From positions 13,161 through 77,160 of IMG/VR virus record IMGVR_UViG_3300025896_001356: a DNA stretch of 64,000 nt. One strand, written 5' to 3'. Positions 32,153 to 60,702 of this stretch are shown here, piece after piece (the stretch's first letter is position 1; each line of letters starts with the position of its first letter). Under the pieces are notes generated by a model, which was not told the origin of the DNA, made no database searches, and worked only from the letters and a program-made list of their open reading frames with translations. This DNA is from a virus. The position numbers and the translations under genes were made by a program.

Positions 32153-32758
32153 CTAACTGCTTGCTAATTTAGCAGCTTTATTTTTGGCTCTTGTTAGCTT
32201 ATATTTTTCAATAGTTTCCGGCGATCGTTTATGTGAATCATTGGCCTTCATTGTTGCCAGTCGTTTAGCAATTGATTCTGGACTATTTGGATTCGTAGTT
32301 CCATTTGCCTCTTTAGTGACACGGCATTTGGCAAGTGATTCTGACGTAATAGTATTCAAAGTACCATATTTTGCCAGTTTAGTTTCAACGCCTTTGGCAA
32401 CTGATTCCGGGCTAGTGAGATTCAAAGTACCATATTTTGCCAGTTTAGTTACTAAACCTTTTGCAATTGATTCTGAAGTTTGTTTTACGCCCTCACCAGA
32501 TTCTGCAATTAAGTTTGCCCAGTCGTCGCTGTCAACCACATTCCATAACTCACTATAATATAGACCAAGTTCTTTGACTTCTTCATTTGAAGTGCATTCT
32601 TTGAGGATTGTAGTGGTATAATCGTACCCGTGTACTTTTAGATGACTGGTCCATCTGGTTCCAGAATCTGGATATTTGTGTGGATCTTTTCTTATTGTTT
32701 TGCCAAGATATTTTAGGCCAGTGACATTATGTGTCTTGACGTATAGATAAATAATCAT
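32153..32758 (-). mobile_element. Free-standing GIY-YIG-like homing endonuclease with repeated C-terminal modules
   Basis: IYLYVK.H..TGLKYLGKT; ~22-aa repeats ES(I/V/L)AK...KYGTLN; antisense to its neighbours. Confidence 0.75.
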
Positions 32759-47957: not shown

Positions 47958-49919
47958 ATGGGAATTAGAGCAAGCTCAGGTGGTCAGTTAGGTTTCGGAG
48001 GTACTTCTGGCGGCACCAGTACAGGCCTAACTATCGAACAAGTGCAAGATATTCTGTCAGAAGCAATTACTACAACTGATACAGTACAAGGCATTACACT
48101 AACATCAACATATGATGATATAACTGGTAAACTTAGAATAAGTTTAGGTACTCCAATAGATGCACCAATTGCAGGGATTGTCCCTGCAAGTATCGAAGTT
48201 GCAAAAACTGGTGTCACAATTGGTGCTGCAAAGGGATTTAACTTTGCTGGGCCAGGAGTTGGTGTCATTAGTATTGTTGATGATGTTGCAACGATTAACA
48301 TTACTGGCGGTGGCGGTGGTGGTGCTGGCATTGGTATTGCTAATGTTGTCATTGATAGCAACGGACATTTAAAAGTATCATTGGATGATGGTAACATCAT
48401 TGATGCTGGTGTTGCTCGTGGCACACAGGGTATCAAAGGTGATACTGGTTTACAAGGGCCGCAGGGTTTAGTTGGCCCTCAGGGCGTACCTGGTATCAAG
48501 GGTGATACTGGTTTACAAGGCGTACCTGGTATCAAAGGTGATACTGGTTTACAAGGTGCCCAGGGAAATACAGGGCGCGGTGTAGCTGCTACTGTAATTG
48601 ACAGTGATGGCAATTTACAAATTTCATTAACTGATGGCAGTATTGTTACTGCTGGTCATGTTGTTGGTCCACAAGGTATACAGGGCGCCCAGGGTGTTCC
48701 TGGCATTGCTGGTTTAAAAGGCGACACTGGTCTACAAGGATTGCCAGGTGCTGCAGGTAGTCCAGGAGTGCAGGGTGTGCCAGGTGCCGATGGTGCGCAG
48801 GGTAGTACAGGTGCAACTGGCGCAAGTGTTAGTGCAGGGGCAGTAGTAAATGGTCATTTGATTATTACTAAGACCGATGGCGCAACAATCGACGCTGGTA
48901 GCGTAGTTGGGCCGCAGGGTGTTCAGGGTGTACAAGGTGTCAAGGGCGACACTGGCACGCAAGGTGCAGCAGGTGTTAGCTATACTCTTAATAATAAAAG
49001 CGGCCAAGTGCAAGTATTTGGGTTATCAACTACTACACAGCCCGGCTACGATTTAGAAGTTGATCTTGCTAACAAAGCAAACAAACTTACAACATCACGT
49101 AATATTGCATTGTCTGGTAAAGTAACTGGTCTAACTACATTTGACGGTAGTGGTAACGTTACTATGCTTACATCATTAAATGGTGTAACTACCAATGATG
49201 TTGCTGAAGGTACAAACCAATATTTTACAAATGCAAGAGCACGGGCTGCATTAAGCGCAAGTACTGGCCTAAGTTATAATAGTGCAACTGGCGTAATGTC
49301 ATTGAACGCTAATAGCGATCAGCTTAACGAAGGTACAAACAATTTATACTTTACCAATAATAGATTTGATAACAGATTAGGACAAAGTACGTTATCACAG
49401 TTTTCAGACGTTGCTAACGTTACGCCTACTACTGGCCAAGCATTGGTATGGAATGGTAATACTTGGACTCCTGGTACTGTTGCCAGCGGCGCTGGTACAA
49501 CTGCTGGATCAAGTTCTGGTTTATTTAAAGCAACTGTTCAAGTTGAATATGATGCAAGCGGTAACCTAAGCAATGTGAGTATTTTAAACGGTGGCATTAG
49601 TGCAGTTATTACAACTGCAACTTCTACATCGGCTACAGTAACTTTTACATTCACTGGCAGTACTTGTTCCCCAATGGGTATTCAAGTGTATGGATATCAA
49701 CGCACAAACAATGTATATGTAACTCGTGCATTAGCAAGTGATTTTCCAACAAGAACTGTAGCAGCAGGTGGAGTATCAGGTGCGCCAACTACGTTCAGTG
49801 CGTTTGATGCGACTGCTAACACAATGACTCTTGGATTGACCAAGGCTGTTACAGGTGCAAGTGCTGGCATTGGCCAGACTACCCATTGTGTATTGCAATT
49901 CTTACTAAGTTCAATCTAA
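47958..49919 (+). CDS. Collagen-like tail fibre/virion protein
   Basis: Several Gly-X-Y runs, EGTN.YFT repeats, FDGSGNV. Confidence 0.8.
   Translation: MGIRASSGGQLGFGGTSGGTSTGLTIEQVQDILSEAITTTDTVQGITLTSTYDDITGKLRISLGTPIDAPIAGIVPASIEVAKTGVTIGAAKGFNFAGPGVGVISIVDDVATINITGGGGGGAGIGIANVVIDSNGHLKVSLDDGNIIDAGVARGTQGIKGDTGLQGPQGLVGPQGVPGIKGDTGLQGVPGIKGDTGLQGAQGNTGRGVAATVIDSDGNLQISLTDGSIVTAGHVVGPQGIQGAQGVPGIAGLKGDTGLQGLPGAAGSPGVQGVPGADGAQGSTGATGASVSAGAVVNGHLIITKTDGATIDAGSVVGPQGVQGVQGVKGDTGTQGAAGVSYTLNNKSGQVQVFGLSTTTQPGYDLEVDLANKANKLTTSRNIALSGKVTGLTTFDGSGNVTMLTSLNGVTTNDVAEGTNQYFTNARARAALSASTGLSYNSATGVMSLNANSDQLNEGTNNLYFTNNRFDNRLGQSTLSQFSDVANVTPTTGQALVWNGNTWTPGTVASGAGTTAGSSSGLFKATVQVEYDASGNLSNVSILNGGISAVITTATSTSATVTFTFTGSTCSPMGIQVYGYQRTNNVYVTRALASDFPTRTVAAGGVSGAPTTFSAFDATANTMTLGLTKAVTGASAGIGQTTHCVLQFLLSSI
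48430..48560 (+). repeat. Tandem collagen-coding repeats
   Basis: ggtatcaa(a/g)ggtgatactggtttacaagg occurs three times. Confidence 0.8.
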
Positions 49920-53052: not shown

Positions 53053-54573
53053 ATGGAATATATTGTAACAGTTGCGGACCCACAAGTGTGGGACACGCTA
53101 TGGGATGAATTGACATCAAACGGATTAGGCGATAACTTTATTCCCGATCATGCAGTCACAGTGATTAATGAACGTCCGTTCAATGACTTTTCTGCACACT
53201 TTGACTTAACCAATGAAGAAGCACAAAATCTAAGATTAGACCCACGTATACAATCAGTTGAGTTACAAGCAGATCAACAACCTGGTATTATTAAACGTTT
53301 CAATGGACAACGGTTAGGAAATTATGATCGTAACCCATATTCAACTACATCAACTATGAAGAACTGGGGCTTGCTACGTTGTAGTAACCAAGCCGATCCA
53401 TTTGGAACTGCATCAACTCTACAGACTAATTTTAACTACAACTTAGATGGCAGTGGAGTCGATATTATTTTAATTGATACTGGAGTTGAAGCAGGCCATC
53501 CCGAGTTTGCAGTCAATGCAGACGGTACTGGCGCAAGTCGTGTAGTAGACTTTGATTGGTATAGTCTCGGTGTTCCAGGTGTTCCATCTGGACCAACTAT
53601 CGGCGGATACATTGGAGATTCAGATGGGCATGGTAGCAACTGCGCAAGCATTGCAGCCGGTAATACATGCGGTTGGGCGCCTGGCGCTGCAATTTATAGT
53701 ATTCGTATTTTTGGTGGCACCAGCATTAAAACAGGTGCGACTCTTGGTGTAATTAACTCTGATTTTGCATTTGACTTAGTTCGTGCATTCCATTTGAAGA
53801 AGATTGCCGAAGGTAATACACGACCAACAGTCTGTTCAAATAGCTGGGGCTACTATGCGTACTATAGCGGTATGCAAACTACAAATTTTCGCGGTACCGT
53901 ATATACAACATCAAGTCGAAATGCCAACTATGGCCAAGTTGCATCAATACACGGAGCTCGTACTATCTATGTTGACACTGCTGTAGAGAATTGTGCAAAT
54001 GCTGGAGTTATCTTAATTGGTGCAGCGGGCAACTACTCGCATAAGATTGACGTACCAGGTGGAATAGATTACAATAATTATTGGTCAAATGGTTGGGGCA
54101 ATACATATTACCATAGAGGTTCAAGTCCAACTGCTACCCCAAGTATGATTAATGTAGGTGCAACAGATTCTGTATTATCAAATCCTGCTGTTGAGCGTAA
54201 AGCATACTTTAGCGAAACTGGCCCTCGAGTTGATGTGTATGCTCCAGGTACTATGATTATGGGTGCTTACGCAAATAAATCATATCAAACTTATGCAGTT
54301 GCAGATCTTCGTAAATCTGGCTACTATCTTAATAAGATTTCTGGGACAAGCCAGGCTACTCCTCAAGTGGCAGGCTATGTTGCATGCCTGTTACAACTGC
54401 GACCAACTTCTAATGTAGGTGATATTAAAAACTTTATTTCAACGCACAGCAATAAAAATAAGTTAGCAGAAGGAGTAGAATCATGGACCAATCAATATAC
54501 ACTGCACGGTGGCGCAAACAGCTATTTGTATACTCCATTTACTAATCCAAGTCGCGGCAGTATTACCAGTTAA
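53053..54573 (+). CDS. Subtilisin-like serine protease (S8)
   Basis: IDTG, HGSNCA, AAGN, SGTSQATP catalytic motifs. Confidence 0.9.
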   Translation: MEYIVTVADPQVWDTLWDELTSNGLGDNFIPDHAVTVINERPFNDFSAHFDLTNEEAQNLRLDPRIQSVELQADQQPGIIKRFNGQRLGNYDRNPYSTTSTMKNWGLLRCSNQADPFGTASTLQTNFNYNLDGSGVDIILIDTGVEAGHPEFAVNADGTGASRVVDFDWYSLGVPGVPSGPTIGGYIGDSDGHGSNCASIAAGNTCGWAPGAAIYSIRIFGGTSIKTGATLGVINSDFAFDLVRAFHLKKIAEGNTRPTVCSNSWGYYAYYSGMQTTNFRGTVYTTSSRNANYGQVASIHGARTIYVDTAVENCANAGVILIGAAGNYSHKIDVPGGIDYNNYWSNGWGNTYYHRGSSPTATPSMINVGATDSVLSNPAVERKAYFSETGPRVDVYAPGTMIMGAYANKSYQTYAVADLRKSGYYLNKISGTSQATPQVAGYVACLLQLRPTSNVGDIKNFISTHSNKNKLAEGVESWTNQYTLHGGANSYLYTPFTNPSRGSITS

Positions 54574-54596
54574 CCGTTAATTTGATAAGTATTGGT

Positions 54597-55430
54597 ATGA
54601 CACCATATCAAAGACGATACGGCACTTTAGTGCCAAACCCTATTACTCCACCAAATGATGTTGTAACTACGTTACTACGCAGGGTATCTAATAGAAAGTT
54701 TAACGGTAAGCCGTTGGCACCAGGGTTGCTGGAACTTCTTATCGCTGCTGCTCAAAGTGCTCCTACCAGCGGGATGCTTCAAACTTGGAGTGTCATTGCA
54801 CTAACTACCCCTGAAGAAAAAGCAAAGTTATTTAACGGGCCCGGACATATGAATGTTATCGGTGGCGTAGATAGCCAAAATACTATTGCAATTAATACAT
54901 CGGCTGTTGTATTAATTTGGCTCGCTGATTTGTCAAGGTTGGAACTTATTTTAAAAACTGTGGATACAGATGACTTAATAAAAGCCCAAGTTACAAAAGC
55001 AGAATACCATCTAAAGGCTATCATTGATGCAACTATTGCGGCCCAAACATTCTTTATGGCTGCAGAGTCCATGGGTATCACAGGTACATACTGTGGGGCA
55101 ATAAGACAATTGCCAATTTCAGCCCTTGAGACTGAGTTTAACTTGCCTAAGCATACTTTCCCAATTTTTGGTACGATTCATGGATACAATGATGATGCTG
55201 TGCTTGCTCATGTTAGGCCCAGAATGCCAAGTAATTTGGTTTTGCACCACGGTTCGTATACAAAAATGCAAGATACAAACGAACTAAAGGACTATAATAT
55301 AGCACACAGGCGGAACGGCAGTCCGCATTGTTCAAATTTTGAAGATCGAGTAATTGAAAGATTGGCGCCAAGTCTTAGTAAAGAAGCAGTTGGCGATGCA
55401 TTACGATATATGGGATTTGACTTTAAATAA
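54597..55430 (+). CDS. Nitroreductase (NfsA/Frp-like)
   Basis: RVSNRKF, AQSAPTS..LQ, AESMG..G.Y.GAIR, RPRMP. Confidence 0.88.
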   Translation: MTPYQRRYGTLVPNPITPPNDVVTTLLRRVSNRKFNGKPLAPGLLELLIAAAQSAPTSGMLQTWSVIALTTPEEKAKLFNGPGHMNVIGGVDSQNTIAINTSAVVLIWLADLSRLELILKTVDTDDLIKAQVTKAEYHLKAIIDATIAAQTFFMAAESMGITGTYCGAIRQLPISALETEFNLPKHTFPIFGTIHGYNDDAVLAHVRPRMPSNLVLHHGSYTKMQDTNELKDYNIAHRRNGSPHCSNFEDRVIERLAPSLSKEAVGDALRYMGFDFK

Positions 55431-55438
55431 GGAATTAT

Positions 55439-55819
55439 ATGGAAATACTTGAACCAAAACACTTTCTAAGAATTTGTGTATCACGTGAGCTCACTGATGT
55501 AGAATTTGAGGACATGACAGATATTGTTGATGATGAAATTGGTGACATTGTTGCAAGCGACGATGTCATCGAACACGATAATGCAGCAGGTATGATTTGC
55601 TATATGTTCCAACTTACCACTGATATCGAACATAGTGAGCAAGGCGCAATGTCCGGAGATATTGTTAGCTATGAAATAGATCGAATGCTACCACGTGGAC
55701 TCGAATGGGAAATGGAAGCCAGCACCGACGACATTACATTGAATATTGCAGATGATGCAACTCAAGAACAAGTAGAAGAAGCAGCTATCAACTACTTTCG
55801 TAATATCTTGAATGGCTGA
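55439..55819 (+). CDS. Acidic hypothetical protein
   Basis: AAGGA RBS. Confidence 0.6.
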   Translation: MEILEPKHFLRICVSRELTDVEFEDMTDIVDDEIGDIVASDDVIEHDNAAGMICYMFQLTTDIEHSEQGAMSGDIVSYEIDRMLPRGLEWEMEASTDDITLNIADDATQEQVEEAAINYFRNILNG

Positions 55820-56277
55820 TGAAATATTCGCCGGGTTCATTACATCTACTAGGCTACACTAAACGCAGTCCCATCTGGGATGATTTTGTTACTAAAACCA
55901 TGGCAACATGGTACAAATTCAGCCCTGATCATAGCGTAAGTCACTTCGCCTGGGTTAATAATTCCAACCATCGCAATAGCCAAGGCACTACACACGGTGG
56001 CGCATTAATGACATATATGGACTATTGTATGGCTGCTGCTGTTTGGGATTTGTCGGGTGGCAAAGCTGCATTTACTATAGAACTTAACAACCAATTTATT
56101 AGGCCAGCACGTATCACACGTTGGCTCTTTGCTGAAATTAGGCCCACTCGTATCACTGATGTAATTGAGCTCGAAGGTGTAGTCAGGGCCAATGATCCAA
56201 CTGGTATGATTGTGATGAAAAGTTATGGTAAATTTACTTTGCCAAAAGAGTTAAAAATGCTTGACAATGACGAGTAA
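55819..56277 (+). CDS. PaaI/hotdog thioesterase
   Basis: HRNSQGTTHGGALMTYMD, FIRPA. Confidence 0.85.
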   Translation: MKYSPGSLHLLGYTKRSPIWDDFVTKTMATWYKFSPDHSVSHFAWVNNSNHRNSQGTTHGGALMTYMDYCMAAAVWDLSGGKAAFTIELNNQFIRPARITRWLFAEIRPTRITDVIELEGVVRANDPTGMIVMKSYGKFTLPKELKMLDNDE

Positions 56278-56289
56278 GTTTGCTATAAT
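56261..56289 (+). promoter_or_regulatory. sigma70 consensus promoter
   Basis: TTGACA-17-TATAAT. Confidence 0.85.
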
Positions 56290-56324
56290 AGTCACATACG
56301 CTAACAACAGCAACTAAGGAACAT

Positions 56325-56900
56325 ATGAAAATCAATTTACGCAAGGCCAGTGTGGTCCAGCAAACAATCCAAGATGAGATCAAGCGTCTTGGTACAGAGA
56401 GCTACACTCTCAAAGTAAGTCTGTTTGAAACAGACATTGAAGCTCGCCTTAACGAGCAATTGGCAAAAGTGCGTGAGAACCATGCACACGCAGGTCGTTT
56501 GATGAGTGCAAACCGATTCCTGCGGGCTGTGGTAGCTCGAAAGAATGCCGAAGTTGGCATCACTGACTACTTGGCTGAAGAAGCTATGTTAGGTGCTGCA
56601 GAAACACGATTGAAGTCATTTAGCGAAGCTAGTGTTCGCCAAGCATTAGATAGCTTGGTTGCAGAAATTGAAAGCCGCCGTACTCCTGGTAGCGATCGCT
56701 CCAGCATTTACGGTCGTGAATACACCGTTGACGTAAACGTGGTTCCTGCAGAAGCAGTGGCCGAAGCTAAAAAAGAATTGGAAACAATCCGACGACGTCG
56801 ACGCAAGATCAAGGACGAGATGGTATCCATCAATGTCCGTACAGAGTTTGAAGTACCTGAACAGGTAGCACTTGTGCTAACTGAGCTCGGGCTAGACTAA
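56325..56900 (+). CDS. Coiled-coil protein, DIP1984/DUF6847-like
   Basis: Helical; MKINLRKA... N-terminus and ELETIRRRRRKIKDEMVSINVRTEF C-terminus. Family resemblance judged by eye. Confidence 0.55.
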   Translation: MKINLRKASVVQQTIQDEIKRLGTESYTLKVSLFETDIEARLNEQLAKVRENHAHAGRLMSANRFLRAVVARKNAEVGITDYLAEEAMLGAAETRLKSFSEASVRQALDSLVAEIESRRTPGSDRSSIYGREYTVDVNVVPAEAVAEAKKELETIRRRRRKIKDEMVSINVRTEFEVPEQVALVLTELGLD

Positions 56901-57119
56901 GACTGCCACACTTAGTCCAGGGTAGGGAATGAAAATATTTCATCGATTACTCGATGAAACTATTGGCTTAGTCTGAACAACTAAACTAAAATTGTCTTGC
57001 TTAGGCATTAAAAATTATATTGATGTTTGATGTAATGCCTAAGCAAAAGACCCATGTTTGACGTTTGCTGTTTGATATTTGCTATTTGACTATTTTCATT
57101 TCGTCCCTGCTTCGTGGCA
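56895..57119 (+). ncRNA. Large structured RNA with 7-nt tandem repeats, 3' of the coiled-coil gene
   Basis: Perfect 9-bp and 14-bp hairpins inside a long closing helix, five YRTTTGM heptads, and a possible TGCCAC/GTGGCA pseudoknot. Confidence 0.7.
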
Positions 57120-57123
57120 CTAT

Positions 57124-57282
57124 ATGAAGAAAATATGGAGATTATGGGCAAAGGCCCTAGGTGAAAAAGCAGGCAATACTGATCAAGAATCAGATCATAT
57201 TGCTTGCTTTCGTACGATAATTGTGTTAACATACATTATTACAAACTGTTTTATTGTGGCTGGTGTTATCCGGCATTGGTAG
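57124..57282 (+). CDS. Small membrane protein
   Basis: WRLWAKALGEKAG...IVAGVIRHW. Confidence 0.7.
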   Translation: MKKIWRLWAKALGEKAGNTDQESDHIACFRTIIVLTYIITNCFIVAGVIRHW

Positions 57283-57291
57283 GAGCCAATT

Positions 57292-58305
57292 ATGAGTCGT
57301 GTAGGTTTTTGTTGCAAGTGGATCAATGATCCCTCAGAAGTAGCAGGCTTAAAGCCCTCGTCAGTAGATCGTGATCTAAATGGTCGCAGTACTACCATGC
57401 GTTGGTTGCGCGAACACAAGGTCGAAGCTGAACAACGTCAGTGGGACATTATGAATCATAATGCTCGTGCTGCCTTGCTCTTAGTAGAACGTGTGGCCAG
57501 TTTGCCTGCTAATCGTCGCATGGTACGATTAGGTTCAGAAATGCTACAAGGCTATACGCACGATGAATGGATTCCATTCTGGCAGCAGGCTGATGTGCAG
57601 GATCACTGTGCTCGAATCTTTGCTCCTGTAGGTGAAGCTGCTCGACGATTAGATGTGCGTCTTAGTTTCCACCCTGGACAATTCTGTGTGTTGGCTTCTG
57701 AGAATCCTGGCATTGTAGATCGCAGTATCTTAGAATTCGAGTATCACGCAGATCTGGCACGTTGGATGGGTTACGGTCGCACATTTCAGGACTTTAAAAT
57801 TAATGTACATATTTCCGGTAAGCAGGGTCCAGCGGGTATCATTGCTGCACTACAACGACTTAGCCCAGAAGCCAGAAACTGCATCACCATTGAAAACGAC
57901 GAAAACTGCTGGGGCATTGATAGCAGCCTTGAACTGGCCGAACATTGTGCCCTGGTACTTGACGTACACCATCACTGGATCCGTACTGGAGAGTACATTC
58001 AGCCCACCGACGATAGAGTTCTACGTGTGATTGATAGCTGGCGTGGTGTGCGGCCAGCTATGCACTACTCAGTCAGCAGAAAAGATGTGTTGGTTGGTCA
58101 TGCCACAGATGTGTTGCCGGACATGGCTGCACTGTTGGCACAGGGCTACAAAAAGCAAAAGATGCGGGCACATTCGGACTTTTACTGGAATTCAGCAGTG
58201 AATGATTGGGCAGCTACTTTCAGCAATCAATTTGATATTCAGTGCGAAAGCAAAGGCAAGAACTTGGCCAGTGGTGAATTTGCAAAATTAGTGAATGGTC
58301 ACTAA
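57292..58305 (+). CDS. uvsE: UV damage endonuclease UvsE
   Basis: RLSFHPGQFCVLAS, TIENDE, VLDVHHHW, HYS, AHSD, CESK.KN. Confidence 0.92.
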   Translation: MSRVGFCCKWINDPSEVAGLKPSSVDRDLNGRSTTMRWLREHKVEAEQRQWDIMNHNARAALLLVERVASLPANRRMVRLGSEMLQGYTHDEWIPFWQQADVQDHCARIFAPVGEAARRLDVRLSFHPGQFCVLASENPGIVDRSILEFEYHADLARWMGYGRTFQDFKINVHISGKQGPAGIIAALQRLSPEARNCITIENDENCWGIDSSLELAEHCALVLDVHHHWIRTGEYIQPTDDRVLRVIDSWRGVRPAMHYSVSRKDVLVGHATDVLPDMAALLAQGYKKQKMRAHSDFYWNSAVNDWAATFSNQFDIQCESKGKNLASGEFAKLVNGH

Positions 58306-58338
58306 TTCCCCCTAAAACTATTAAAACGGACTACATTG

Positions 58339-58355
58339 ATGTTGCACCGCAGCAT
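58339..58355. promoter_or_regulatory. PhaR-box-like palindrome
   Basis: ATGTTGC-ACC-GCAGCAT upstream of the phasin-like gene. Confidence 0.5.
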
Positions 58356-58443
58356 ATATATGTTAGTACAAACCACTAATGGTTTATACTGAGATGGTGC
58401 TCATTAGAGGCCTCTTACAATTCGCTTTATTAAGGAAAACATC

Positions 58444-58668
58444 ATGTTCGCAGAAATCACAAAAACTTTCGAATCAAATCAACAATTAGCCAAAGACTTG
58501 GCCACTAAGCTAACAGCAGCTTCAATTGAATTTACAAAAACACTAACAGACGTTAATACACGTTTCGCTGACACATTCAAAGCACAAGCCACAGAAGCTT
58601 ACAAAAACTTAGAGTCATTTAAGTTTCCAGGCTTTGACGCTTACTCTGCAAAGACAAGTAAGAAGTAA
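58444..58668 (+). CDS. Phasin-like amphipathic helical protein
   Basis: Ala/Thr/Lys/Phe-rich helix; PhaR-like box and ROSE-like UUCGCU..AAGGA leader upstream. Confidence 0.5.
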   Translation: MFAEITKTFESNQQLAKDLATKLTAASIEFTKTLTDVNTRFADTFKAQATEAYKNLESFKFPGFDAYSAKTSKK

Positions 58669-58672
58669 TATC

Positions 58673-58834
58673 ATGTGGGTCAGAATTAAAAAATTCTTTG
58701 CCCGTATGTCTAACCAGTCTTCAATGGACTGGTGGGATGAACAATATCTAAACGCATCACAAAATGTTGCAGATTTAGAATATCGTCAAAGACAGCTCCT
58801 ACAAGGTTTTGCAAGAACAAGGGGATATAAATGA
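58673..58834 (+). CDS. DUF3563-like small protein
   Basis: EQYLNASQNVADLEYRQRQL. Confidence 0.6.
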   Translation: MWVRIKKFFARMSNQSSMDWWDEQYLNASQNVADLEYRQRQLLQGFARTRGYK

Positions 58835-58967
58835 GACTACTTTTATCTAAATTGTCTAAGTTTTTAACTGGCCTGCATCAAATACGTACAGCAACAAGCC
58901 TGGCAAGAATGGGCAAATATACTCAGTCCAAGGAAGTAATCTTAGCCAAGTAATTTGCTAATAAAGT

Positions 58968-58990
58968 AAAGCCCCGCAAGGGGCTTTCTT
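58968..58990 (+). terminator. Rho-independent terminator
   Basis: AAAGCCCC-GCAA-GGGGCTTT-CTT. Confidence 0.9.
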
Positions 58991-59012
58991 ATGACTGCAC
59001 TAAATAACATTG

Positions 59013-59609
59013 ATGAAAATAAAAGATATACTCGAAGCAAGTGGATACATTCCTCGTAATGCCAAAGAAGCAAAGGATCCGCGCTGGAGTAGTAGCTTGA
59101 CAGTTGACGTACACACAGATACAATGCGTAAGCAACTTGCTGCATTTTTTCCTACAACTGCACCCATTGATGGGCAAGTACAAATAGAAGAAACAAATAC
59201 AATCATGACAGATAAGCAATTAAACGAAGGCCAAGGCAGCATAAATGTTGAAACACAATATGATATCAGCCGTATTCAAAAGTTGGCCGGATTGGCCAAT
59301 AGCTCTACTGTTGCTGGTACACCAGTAGCAGAAGCAATTAACGACGATATTGACGGTGATAAAGCACGTGAAGTAGCAGCTGAACTAGAACAACAAGTTG
59401 AGCAGTTGACTCGAGTACTTGATGAAATTGAACAAACTATCAAATTTAACTTGCCAAGAGAATATGCAGGCATGAAGGATTACACAATTGCACATATCAA
59501 AGCTGCAATTGGTGGATATGGTTATGCAGAAAATCGCATGTCAAAGTCTTTTGCCAGCTTGATTGAATACTTGAATGAGTACGGCGACGAGGGTGAAGAC
59601 ACATTGTGA
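59013..59609 (+). CDS. Putative late/head-associated protein
   Basis: TAAATA 6 nt upstream; KDILE, DPRW, RIQKLAGL. Confidence 0.55.
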   Translation: MKIKDILEASGYIPRNAKEAKDPRWSSSLTVDVHTDTMRKQLAAFFPTTAPIDGQVQIEETNTIMTDKQLNEGQGSINVETQYDISRIQKLAGLANSSTVAGTPVAEAINDDIDGDKAREVAAELEQQVEQLTRVLDEIEQTIKFNLPREYAGMKDYTIAHIKAAIGGYGYAENRMSKSFASLIEYLNEYGDEGEDTL

Positions 59610-59848
59610 ACAACTATCGCATAACTGCCGCATCATTTAATCCACCGGGTAATAATCCCGGCGTACCTGATGCGTATGTTGATCCAGCAACACTAAAACA
59701 GCACGGTGTGTTTACTACTGCTGAGCCAGCATGTACCGTTGCAGTACTCCCAGCATTGCCTAATTTGGGCAAGTATCAAAAAGATAACAACATTAAACCT
59801 GGCACAGAAGCGTGGTTCAAATTATGGGGACAAGGGATTGCAAGATGA
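59606..59848 (+). CDS. Hypothetical phage protein
   Basis: NIKPGTEAWFKLW. Confidence 0.65.
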   Translation: MNNYRITAASFNPPGNNPGVPDAYVDPATLKQHGVFTTAEPACTVAVLPALPNLGKYQKDNNIKPGTEAWFKLWGQGIAR

Positions 59849-59973
59849 GCGATACTACAGAAACAATCAAAGAAGAACCGTTACAAGAGCCAATTCCAAA
59901 TCCAAATGTATATTTGGTGTATCCCGAAGATGATGGCTCAGATCGTCCTTGCAACCCATATAGCCAAGTTTAA

Positions 59974-60702
59974 TTATAGCTTGGTATAAACAAAGTACAA
60001 TCTATCATTGGCATCTTTCTTAAAGGTATCTAACGAGAGATTGTACTTTTCAGCAAACTCATTTACAACTTCAAAACTCCACGGGAATATATCTACATAA
60101 GGACCAGTCTTATGTGGGATTCCTGGATTAGCACGTAGATAAAACTTACCGCCTGGCTTCAATAAATCAACACAGTGACTAAAACGTGCTTCAATTTCGT
60201 CTTTGCTATTAAAGTTAATTGATCCCAGAGCCATAACTACATCGTGGCTAGCAAACTTAACTTTATACTCTAAAATATCAACTTCGTAGTCAGCACAATT
60301 GTTATATGGATCAATGCCAATGATGTTTTGTATACGTCCTTTGAATGGGTGGTATCCGCATCCAACGTCTAGAACTTTTTCCGGATTAAGTTTATTAACT
60401 TCATCAGCTAATTCCCAACCTGTGTGTTCATAATCGCCAGTGCGTGGTTTCCAAATTTCTCCAAAGAAACGATTGATATAACGTTCGCTTAGATCTGCTG
60501 TAATTTCTTTAAGAGTACCAATGTAATCACAAGGTAAACTCAACTCTGCATCTACTGCATCTTTAAATTTACGATACTGGGCAGGAGTCCAAGGTAGATC
60601 TTGTACAATAGTGTTTTCGTCCAAAGAAATTTTTGTGTACTTGGGTAAATTAAACGCAAGTTGTAAATTTTTCTGAAGAAGGTTAAAAATTTTGGTGTTC
60701 AT
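59974..60702 (-). CDS. Class I SAM-dependent methyltransferase with helical N-terminal extension
   Basis: VLDVGCG, GIDP, LKPGG. Start probably 60702. Confidence 0.85.
   Translation of the reverse strand: MNTKIFNLLQKNLQLAFNLPKYTKISLDENTIVQDLPWTPAQYRKFKDAVDAELSLPCDYIGTLKEITADLSERYINRFFGEIWKPRTGDYEHTGWELADEVNKLNPEKVLDVGCGYHPFKGRIQNIIGIDPYNNCADYEVDILEYKVKFASHDVVMALGSINFNSKDEIEARFSHCVDLLKPGGKFYLRANPGIPHKTGPYVDIFPWSFEVVNEFAEKYNLSLDTFKKDANDRLYFVYTKL

Follow-up and report, generated by a model that had tools for sequence, protein, structure and literature searches.

We analyzed a window of 64,000 nucleotides (nt) from an uncultured freshwater phage (positions 13,161 to 77,160 of the IMG/VR record IMGVR_UViG_3300025896_001356; all coordinates below are those of the window). 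In this window an RNA element lies directly 3' of a small gene for a helical protein. The element, a block of about 225 nt, is a genuine structured RNA outside Rfam, and neither this RNA, which we call the UUG-heptad RNA, nor its partner protein matches a described family. The RNA and the gene are kept as a pair in hundreds of phages, mostly among transfer RNA (tRNA) genes, and they probably make up a protein-RNA particle. We give a probability of about 0.6 to the reading that the promoter at 56261 opens one early transcription unit, which encodes a dimer-forming protein and a pseudoknotted RNA that together form a ribonucleoprotein. A first-pass annotation, made from the sequence letters, had proposed a new protein-RNA module at this locus; it had overlooked that the pair belongs to a large family in tRNA islands, that the RNA can stand on either side of the gene, and that the closest precedents are HutP, with its 7-nt period, and the filaments of VIPR.

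The structured nature of the RNA is evident from its conservation. In all 28 close loci from IMG/VR, in which the protein is 58-96% identical, the ~225-nt structured element is found directly 3' of the stop codon and ends in GUGGCAC. What follows varies among these loci and may be a small open reading frame (ORF) like phrog_1679, a different ORF, a new promoter or a terminator. The gene content changes exactly at the 3' end of the element. We aligned 20 distinct sequences with the use of MAFFT and scored a hand-drawn structure composed of P1, a pseudoknot, P2a, P2b, P3, P4 and P5. In this alignment 88.9% of the cells are paired, compared with 34-41% in a control with slid partners, and 37 of the 61 pairs are compensatory. 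After realignment to a covariance model, R1 (alignment A8, 20 distinct sequences), the paired cells amount to 92.2% versus 34-42% for slid partners, with 38 of 55 pairs compensatory; none of 500 shuffles matched this result. Alignment A8 leans toward the structure because it was fitted to R1, whereas the MAFFT result is independent. All helices of the RNA covary across relatives; this includes the long-range pseudoknot, for which the MAFFT alignment was used.

Model R1 is specific for the clade of the window: it misses the Caulobacter versions and detects distant clades only with E values of 0.003-0.9. Because R1 does not reach them, the distant members were aligned separately for each clade. 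Compensatory changes occur in 21 of 53 pairs in alignment A5 (10 sequences with the RNA downstream of the gene) and in 35 of 43 pairs in alignment A6 (21 sequences with the RNA mainly upstream). The G.U cells outnumber the A.C cells by 134 to 11 in A6 and by 67 to 8 in A5; the functional strand is therefore the strand of the gene. Folding of a 236-nt stretch gave an energy of -69.1 kcal/mol (z = -5.2), and none of 200 shuffles folded as well. Searching Rfam 15 with cmscan returned only chance matches to models of microRNAs and long non-coding RNAs, both for positions 54000-60000 (E <= 10) and for five related loci (E <= 5); the models of GOLLD, ROOL, Y RNA-like elements, 6S RNA, RNase P, tmRNA and ribozymes are among those without a match. 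ARAGORN recognized no tRNA and no transfer-messenger RNA (tmRNA) anywhere in the window or the 77-kb contig; the resemblance of the RNA to a tRNA is confined to the anticodon arm, which is mimicked by P4. No description of the RNA or of the protein family was found in the literature, a comparison that excludes the set of 10,006 unnamed viral RNA candidates in PMC10690425.

The features of the RNA, from 5' to 3', are the following:

56895..57119, plus strand: whole UUG-heptad RNA, non-coding, 225 nt; found by model R1 (251.5 bits over 56893-57122), fold z score, covariation and metatranscriptome contigs
56895-56901 with 56911-56917, plus strand: P1, a hairpin of 7 base pairs (bp) across the TAA stop codon (GACTAAG/CTTAGTC); 100% paired, 2 pairs compensatory
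56904-56909, plus strand: 5' strand of the pseudoknot, UGCCAC in the loop of P1, complementary to GUGGCA at 57114-57119
56918..56937, plus strand: 5' strands of the closing helices, P2a (56918-56922) and P2b (56926-56937); 100% and 94% paired, 11 of 17 pairs compensatory
56938..56959, plus strand: P3, a perfect 9-bp hairpin; compensatory changes in 9 of 9 pairs
56968..56984, plus strand: P4, a 5-bp stem with a 7-nt loop, CUGAACA (CUUGAAA in most relatives), like a tRNA anticodon arm
56994..57051, plus strand: P5, a 4 + 13-bp hairpin with a 22-nt loop that contains the conserved and nearly invariant motif UUGAUGUUUGAUG; 13 of 17 pairs compensatory
57055..57089, plus strand: single-stranded heptad array of five units, with UUG at 57058, 57065, 57072, 57079 and 57086, each followed by four variable bases
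57091..57109, plus strand: 3' strands of the closing helices, P2b (57091-57102) and P2a (57105-57109); found by inverted-repeat search and covariation
57114..57119, plus strand: 3' strand of the pseudoknot, GUGGCA, which is the 3' boundary of the element; 92% paired, 3 of 6 pairs compensatory

The hairpin across the stop codon, the closing helix and the 9-bp and 14-bp hairpins had been recognized in the first-pass annotation and lie where it had placed them; the perfect 14-bp hairpin (56997-57010 with 57033-57046) is part of P5. Its proposal of a pseudoknot between the P1 loop and the 3' end is borne out by the covariation in relatives. P1 occurs in the compensatory forms GAUUGAG/CUCAAUC (locus L026) and GACUGAG/CUCAGUC (locus L022), and in L022 the pseudoknot is GGCCGC/GCGGCC instead of UGCCAC/GUGGCA. 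P4 is a fifth hairpin, which had escaped notice; in relatives it resembles the anticodon arm of a tRNA, and GGUCUUGAAAACC is invariant in P4 of alignment A5. The five heptads between 57055 and 57089 are present as originally described (Tandem Repeats Finder (TRF) reports period 7 and 5.1 copies for 57054-57089), and so is a sixth TGTTTGA in the hairpin loop of P5 (57025-57031). The array is unpaired in the RNAalifold consensus. In all three clades the UUG columns are near-invariant (>= 0.9 conserved), while the next four columns are variable, with an entropy of up to ~1.8 bits. What is conserved in the repeat is UUG, followed by a spacer of four variable bases; the heptad period had been correctly identified, and the TGTTTGA of the first-pass annotation is a local form of UUG-N4.

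The pair of RNA and gene extends far beyond the clade of the window. Homologues of the protein (~30% identity) are encoded by cultured jumbo phages, namely the Caulobacter phages CcrPW and CcrColossus, Brevundimonas phages and the Yersinia phage fHe-Yen9-04, and each of these genes is followed by an unannotated gap of 285-313 nt. The gaps of CcrPW and of the Yersinia phage fold with z values of -5.8 and -5.9 and contain a closing helix, internal hairpins and an array of UUG/UUGY. A tblastn search with two other members of the protein family found no cultured phages. A profile-based scan identified at least 368 relatives in IMG/VR, from which 80 diverse loci were taken, many on contigs of 250-360 kb. 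The shared core of the RNAs consists of a 5' GUUUUG with the first hairpin, the closing helices (GAUAGAC/GUCUAUU), P3, P4, P5 with a UUG-rich loop, and 5-7 UUG at a 7-nt period, an array that is at times interrupted by an inserted hairpin. Regular-expression detectors for UUG chains and for hairpins proved too crude for counting the RNA across all 80 loci. In general terms, members of the family have a closing helix, 3-4 internal hairpins, of which one is similar to an anticodon arm, and a strictly 7-nt-periodic series of 5-7 single-stranded UUG-N4 units. The element in the window conforms to this description: its closing helix surrounds P3, P4, P5 and the single-stranded UUG-N4 array, and it adjoins a gene of the ~190-amino-acid (aa) protein family.

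We also searched IMG/VR from the side of the RNA, with the 16-mer GGTCTATTACTTGACC from its 3' strand. This search resulted in 81 sites. The gene is immediately downstream on the same strand at 66 of them and upstream at one; nine are chance matches in coding DNA without features of the RNA, and five are too near a contig end to judge. All 67 real RNAs from this search adjoin the gene. The data support the view that the RNA is tied to the helical-protein gene and not to the downstream genes. Four gene orders occur: gene-RNA, RNA-gene (35-45 nt apart), RNA-omega-gene and gene-tRNA-RNA. This variation argues against a purely positional role in cis. The homologue of the RNA polymerase omega subunit between RNA and gene has 75-82 aa (PF01192, E 1.6e-13), and an omega homologue is found in 68 of 160 related loci. 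In three loci (L063:2274-2504, L092:2274-2504 and L106:2277-2504) the omega ORF has 75-76 aa, and its stop codon overlaps the next start.

Some loci show additional peculiarities of the RNA. Two copies per contig were found in L163 (a 6.9-kb contig), in L059 (~1.66 kb past the stop codon of the gene) and in L051 and L053 (~2.28 kb past it); in L163 each copy of the RNA is followed by its own copy of the gene. In L084, L091 and L104 the conserved 3' strand of the RNA, ACUUGACC, is followed by a 17-nt spacer and TATAAT, which gives a sigma70-like promoter of the gene downstream. One stretch of DNA thus seems to serve both the closing helix and this promoter.

Upstream of the RNA the locus contains two further features:

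56261..56289, plus strand: sigma70-type early promoter, TTGACA-17-TATAAT, 12 of 12 matches, with a TG-extended -10 element
56325..56900, plus strand: encodes a 191-aa all-helical protein from an uncharacterized ~190-aa phage family, with a DIP1984-like fold and a predicted homodimer

Both the perfect promoter and the helical protein with its RRRRRK patch (residues 156-161) agree with the first description of the locus. The 191-aa protein has no match in Pfam (E <= 0.1), PHROG or NCBIfam, and 10 distant members of its family are without a Pfam or NCBIfam assignment. A sequence-profile search of the PDB resulted in just weak coiled-coil matches, including HP1242/DUF465 at E 0.06-0.1. The family itself is large: a profile search of 1.84 billion representatives (E <= 1e-3) found at least 814 clusters at 50% identity, and almost all of the best 150 of these 814 matches are 185-200 aa long.

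The AlphaFold2 (AF2) model of the protein (pLDDT 84.7) consists of helices and two strands of three residues. When this model was compared with 48,161 PDB chains, DIP1984 from Corynebacterium diphtheriae (3KDQ) ranked first with a VIA-align Z of 10.7 (root mean square deviation 2.9 A, 139 of 152 residues), although a Z below ~13 may, for helical proteins, mean merely a common arrangement of helices. Foldseek gave a probability of 0.99 for the same structure, yet an E value of 0.12. The classification as a DIP1984/DUF6847-like protein had already been suggested in the first-pass annotation. It stands with respect to the shared fold and to a lead from the ESM Atlas, where a neighboring cluster has DUF6847 in 19% of its members; at the sequence level it does not, since the Pfam hidden Markov model of DUF6847 (PF20935) matches neither the 191-aa protein nor the 10 distant members. 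3KDQ is itself uncharacterized.

A homodimer of the 191-aa protein is supported in silico. The prediction scored 0.73, while the best control scored 0.00. In a benchmark, 20 of 30 proteins whose structures had been solved as pairs of one chain attained this mark, as did 1 of 23 that had been solved as single chains; these counts apply roughly here, as a custom alignment was used, and the score is a model confidence and not a measurement. At least 95% of contacts are common to the runs, and the partner pLDDT is at least 87. The predicted interface covers residues 19-144 and leaves the basic patch free. The earlier suggestion of an oligomeric protein holds for a predicted dimer, the assembly that was modelled.

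Sequences from RNA libraries cover the locus. Contigs from four freshwater metatranscriptome studies span 56307-57172 and include the gene and the RNA; one contig bridges the two (56535-57023), and an X8 RNA contig ends at 57117, where adapter sequence follows. None of the contigs begins before 56307. The stretch 56200-56306 and gaps inside the gene are without RNA contigs. The presence of gene and RNA in these libraries is supportive only.

In the reading that we favor, the promoter at 56261 would drive a transcript that contains the 191-aa helical protein and then, from the stop codon on, the 225-nt RNA. The folded scaffold would keep the evenly spaced UUG triplets single-stranded, and several protein dimers would dock on these triplets to give a ribonucleoprotein. 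The RNA family is passed on together with the protein family. The function of such a particle could lie in translation or transcription, to which the residence in tRNA islands with homologues of omega and IF-1 is only a pointer. The homologue of translation initiation factor IF-1 (PF01176, E 8e-19; L124:2687-2983 and 23 others) occurs in 24 loci, in tRNA-island neighborhoods; a metallophosphoesterase and a dual-specificity-phosphatase-like ORF also recur in these neighborhoods.

Should the pair be a particle, phages would possess a widespread ribonucleoprotein that is absent from databases. Its place would be in the midst of phage tRNA islands; for decades the contents of these islands other than tRNAs (GOLLD, ROOL and the stable RNAs of T4 and T5) have lacked an explanation. 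In the RNA a closed scaffold comes together with a mimic of an anticodon arm and a strictly periodic array of triplets, a design found so far only in HutP, TRAP and the VIPR guides. The reading is directly testable, as the family has members among cultured phages that infect Caulobacter crescentus, Brevundimonas and Yersinia.

Several points weigh against a ribonucleoprotein. The modelling was of the dimer alone, and the contact between protein and RNA is inferred. In the clade of the window the asymmetry of G.U over A.C cells is weak, with just 47 versus 29. The variable spacers may simply be unconstrained. The expression data are contigs only; they give no RNA ends and no abundance, and carry-over of DNA is possible. 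Furthermore, the RNA could act without the protein because in some clades it has its own promoter or starts at a tRNA CCA end, and there is a precedent for this: GOLLD and ROOL, which are the other structured RNAs in the tRNA islands of phages, function as assemblies of RNA alone (bioRxiv 10.1101/2024.12.08.627333).

The last two points lead to the alternative of a stable tRNA-island RNA that stands alone, either as an RNA-only assembly of the GOLLD/ROOL type or as a decoy or sponge for a host factor; the protein would then be co-inherited or an indirect helper. The start of the RNA fits this alternative in several clades: in some loci a near-consensus sigma70 promoter lies directly 5' of GUUUUG, and elsewhere the RNA begins after the CCA end of a tRNA. 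The same holds for the surroundings, with tRNA genes at 73 of the 80 diverse loci and all of their 679 tRNAs on the strand of the gene; tRNA genes are absent from the 28 loci of the window clade and from the 77-kb contig. The P4 hairpin of the shared core, with its 5-bp stem and CUUGAAA loop, is a copy of the anticodon arm of tRNA-Ser(UGA), and a decoy could be directed at an enzyme or nuclease that reads anticodon arms, or else at a U/G-binding protein. However, the loop of P4 varies within the window clade, where it reads CUGAACA, CUGAAAA or CUAAACA. Moreover, the finding that 67 of 67 real RNAs adjoin the gene across four orders is hard to explain without a functional tie. We consider a stand-alone RNA, in either form, unlikely.

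The known RNAs of tRNA islands differ from the UUG-heptad RNA. GOLLD and ROOL are likewise ornate, pseudoknotted phage RNAs with unknown function that often reside in tRNA islands, but they are longer (580 to >800 nt), lack a dedicated protein gene and form RNA-only nanocages (bioRxiv 10.1101/2024.12.08.627333); their Rfam models do not match the UUG-heptad RNA. Phages T4 (rnaC and rnaD) and T5 (RNAI, RNAIII, RNAX and others) also have stable non-tRNA species among their tRNA genes according to the GenBank annotation. Neither a heptad array nor the CUUGAAA hairpin is present in rnaC or rnaD, the T4 proteins e.5 and e.6 are not homologous to the helical protein, and the protein profile gives no match in T5. 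The tRNA region of T5 (L233, 24000-44000) contains eight annotated stable RNAs of unknown function, including the 719-nt RNAX beside a tRNA-Arg.

The RNA could also be a cis-acting untranslated region of the mRNA for the protein, which would bind its own transcript for autoregulation, stability or translational control. The element is indeed always within the transcription unit of the gene: it begins at the stop codon in the window and ends ~35-45 nt before the start codon in another clade. The RNA-library contig that bridges the two is consistent with this, as are intrinsic terminators 3' of the RNA in L021, L025, L058 and L087. Nevertheless, the element occurs at either end of the gene, also with an omega gene or a tRNA in between. 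Known autoregulatory sites are far simpler and less well conserved than this element of 225-300 nt with 5-7 helices. A regulatory role of this kind is quite unlikely.

The periodic triplets invite a comparison with proteins that read such arrays. TRAP, an 11-mer ring of beta-sandwich subunits, reads 11 (G/U)AG triplets with 2-3-nt spacers and acts as an attenuation switch in cis on the Bacillus trp leader. The evenly spaced triplets on single-stranded RNA are common to both systems, and TRAP is a symmetric oligomer; the difference is in the ~11 (G/U)AG with 2-3-nt spacers versus 5-7 UUG with 4-nt spacers here. HutP of Bacillus subtilis recognizes NAG triplets with 4-nt spacers, i.e. a 7-nt period, at two sites of the hut terminator RNA, which wraps the oligomeric protein (PMC2425495). 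Triplet, spacer length and period are thus the same in layout as in the UUG array. In contrast, the motif is NAG instead of UUG, and HutP is a hexameric alpha/beta protein that acts on a terminator in cis, whereas the protein here is helical and unrelated (no Pfam match to the HutP family at E <= 0.1), has no evident terminator switch, and comes with an array that is enclosed in a large closed scaffold.

The third system, VIPR, is phage-encoded and relies on RAMP protomers that polymerize along YNNGG repeats, with GGY buried and NN exposed as a gapped guide (bioRxiv 10.64898/2026.04.26.720920, 10.64898/2026.04.26.720927). It resembles the pair described here in being a two-part phage module in which a conserved triplet alternates with variable bases, as is the case for UUG-N4, next to a structured, pseudoknotted flank; Vipr forms a filament along its repeats. 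By analogy the UUG-N4 array might be a second, independently evolved 'noncontiguous code', in which a filament of the helical protein would bury UUG and the spacer bases would read a gapped DNA or RNA target in a programmable way. The target could be a rival phage, a host gene or a tRNA, and the system would be like VIPR with an unrelated protein fold; we see this as a long shot. A guide that works strictly as in VIPR, with protomers that polymerize on the array, bury UUG and expose N4 for gapped base-pairing, is very improbable even though the alternation of triplet and spacer fits the GGY/NN logic of the vrRNAs. Vipr has a RAMP/RRM core with G-loop and thumb, while the protein here is all-helical with the helical 3KDQ as best fold match. 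The vrRNAs contain 9-16 YNNGG repeats (5-nt period) and a conserved tail in ~100 nt and are often arrayed, while here 5-7 UUG-N4 units with a 7-nt period lie inside a closing helix in one RNA of 225-300 nt per locus, without a guide array. In addition, the spacers of close relatives differ, as judged by eye, to about the same extent as the rest of the RNA. Since fold, motif and/or period differ, the module is not a member of the TRAP, HutP or VIPR systems; it may still work like them.

Finally, a type III toxin-antitoxin pair or a DNA-level element (origin iterons, an operator array or a recombination hotspot) would account for a short tandem repeat beside a small gene and for the switch of gene content at the 3' end of the element, but is extremely unlikely, because the repeats are conserved on a single strand, units of 30-40 nt are absent, the protein is helical and not ToxN-like, and long-range compensatory pairs, the pseudoknot and strand-specific G.U pairs indicate an RNA. 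The toxin-antitoxin analogy drawn in the first-pass annotation fails on both components: TRF and a repeat search found just a 7-nt (or 14-nt) period over 35-41 nt and not the ~34-36-nt antitoxin repeats of ToxIN, and the AF2 model without a Pfam match is not that of a beta-sheet endoribonuclease of the ToxN/AbiQ type. The DNA-element reading is rejected because of the strand-specific G.U pairs and the long-range covariation.

The surroundings of the locus were annotated as well. An ORF of 52 aa (57124-57282) starts 5 nt past the last base of the pseudoknot; it has a hydrophobic C-terminal half and no obvious Shine-Dalgarno sequence, and it matches phrog_1679 (E 2e-26). Its DNA is ~70-78% identical to unannotated or hypothetical ORFs of the marine cyanomyoviruses P-TIM68, S-CREM1 and S-SCSM1, and the copies in L004 and L005 have an early in-frame TGA. 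Inside this ORF is a 13-nt inverted repeat (57166-57210; AAAGCAGGCAATA / TATTGCTTGCTTT), which is 92% complementary with a 19-nt loop and recurs in relatives. The neighboring genes at 53053-58305 encode a subtilase (PF00082), a nitroreductase, a 4HBT thioesterase and a UvdE UV endonuclease (PF03851), an unusual auxiliary set for a phage. Elsewhere in the window, a 66-nt tandem repeat is present at 32327-32476 (2.3 copies, 81% match), and repeats of 9, 18 and 36 nt at 48481-48940 are probably a coding region for collagen-like Gly-X-Y.

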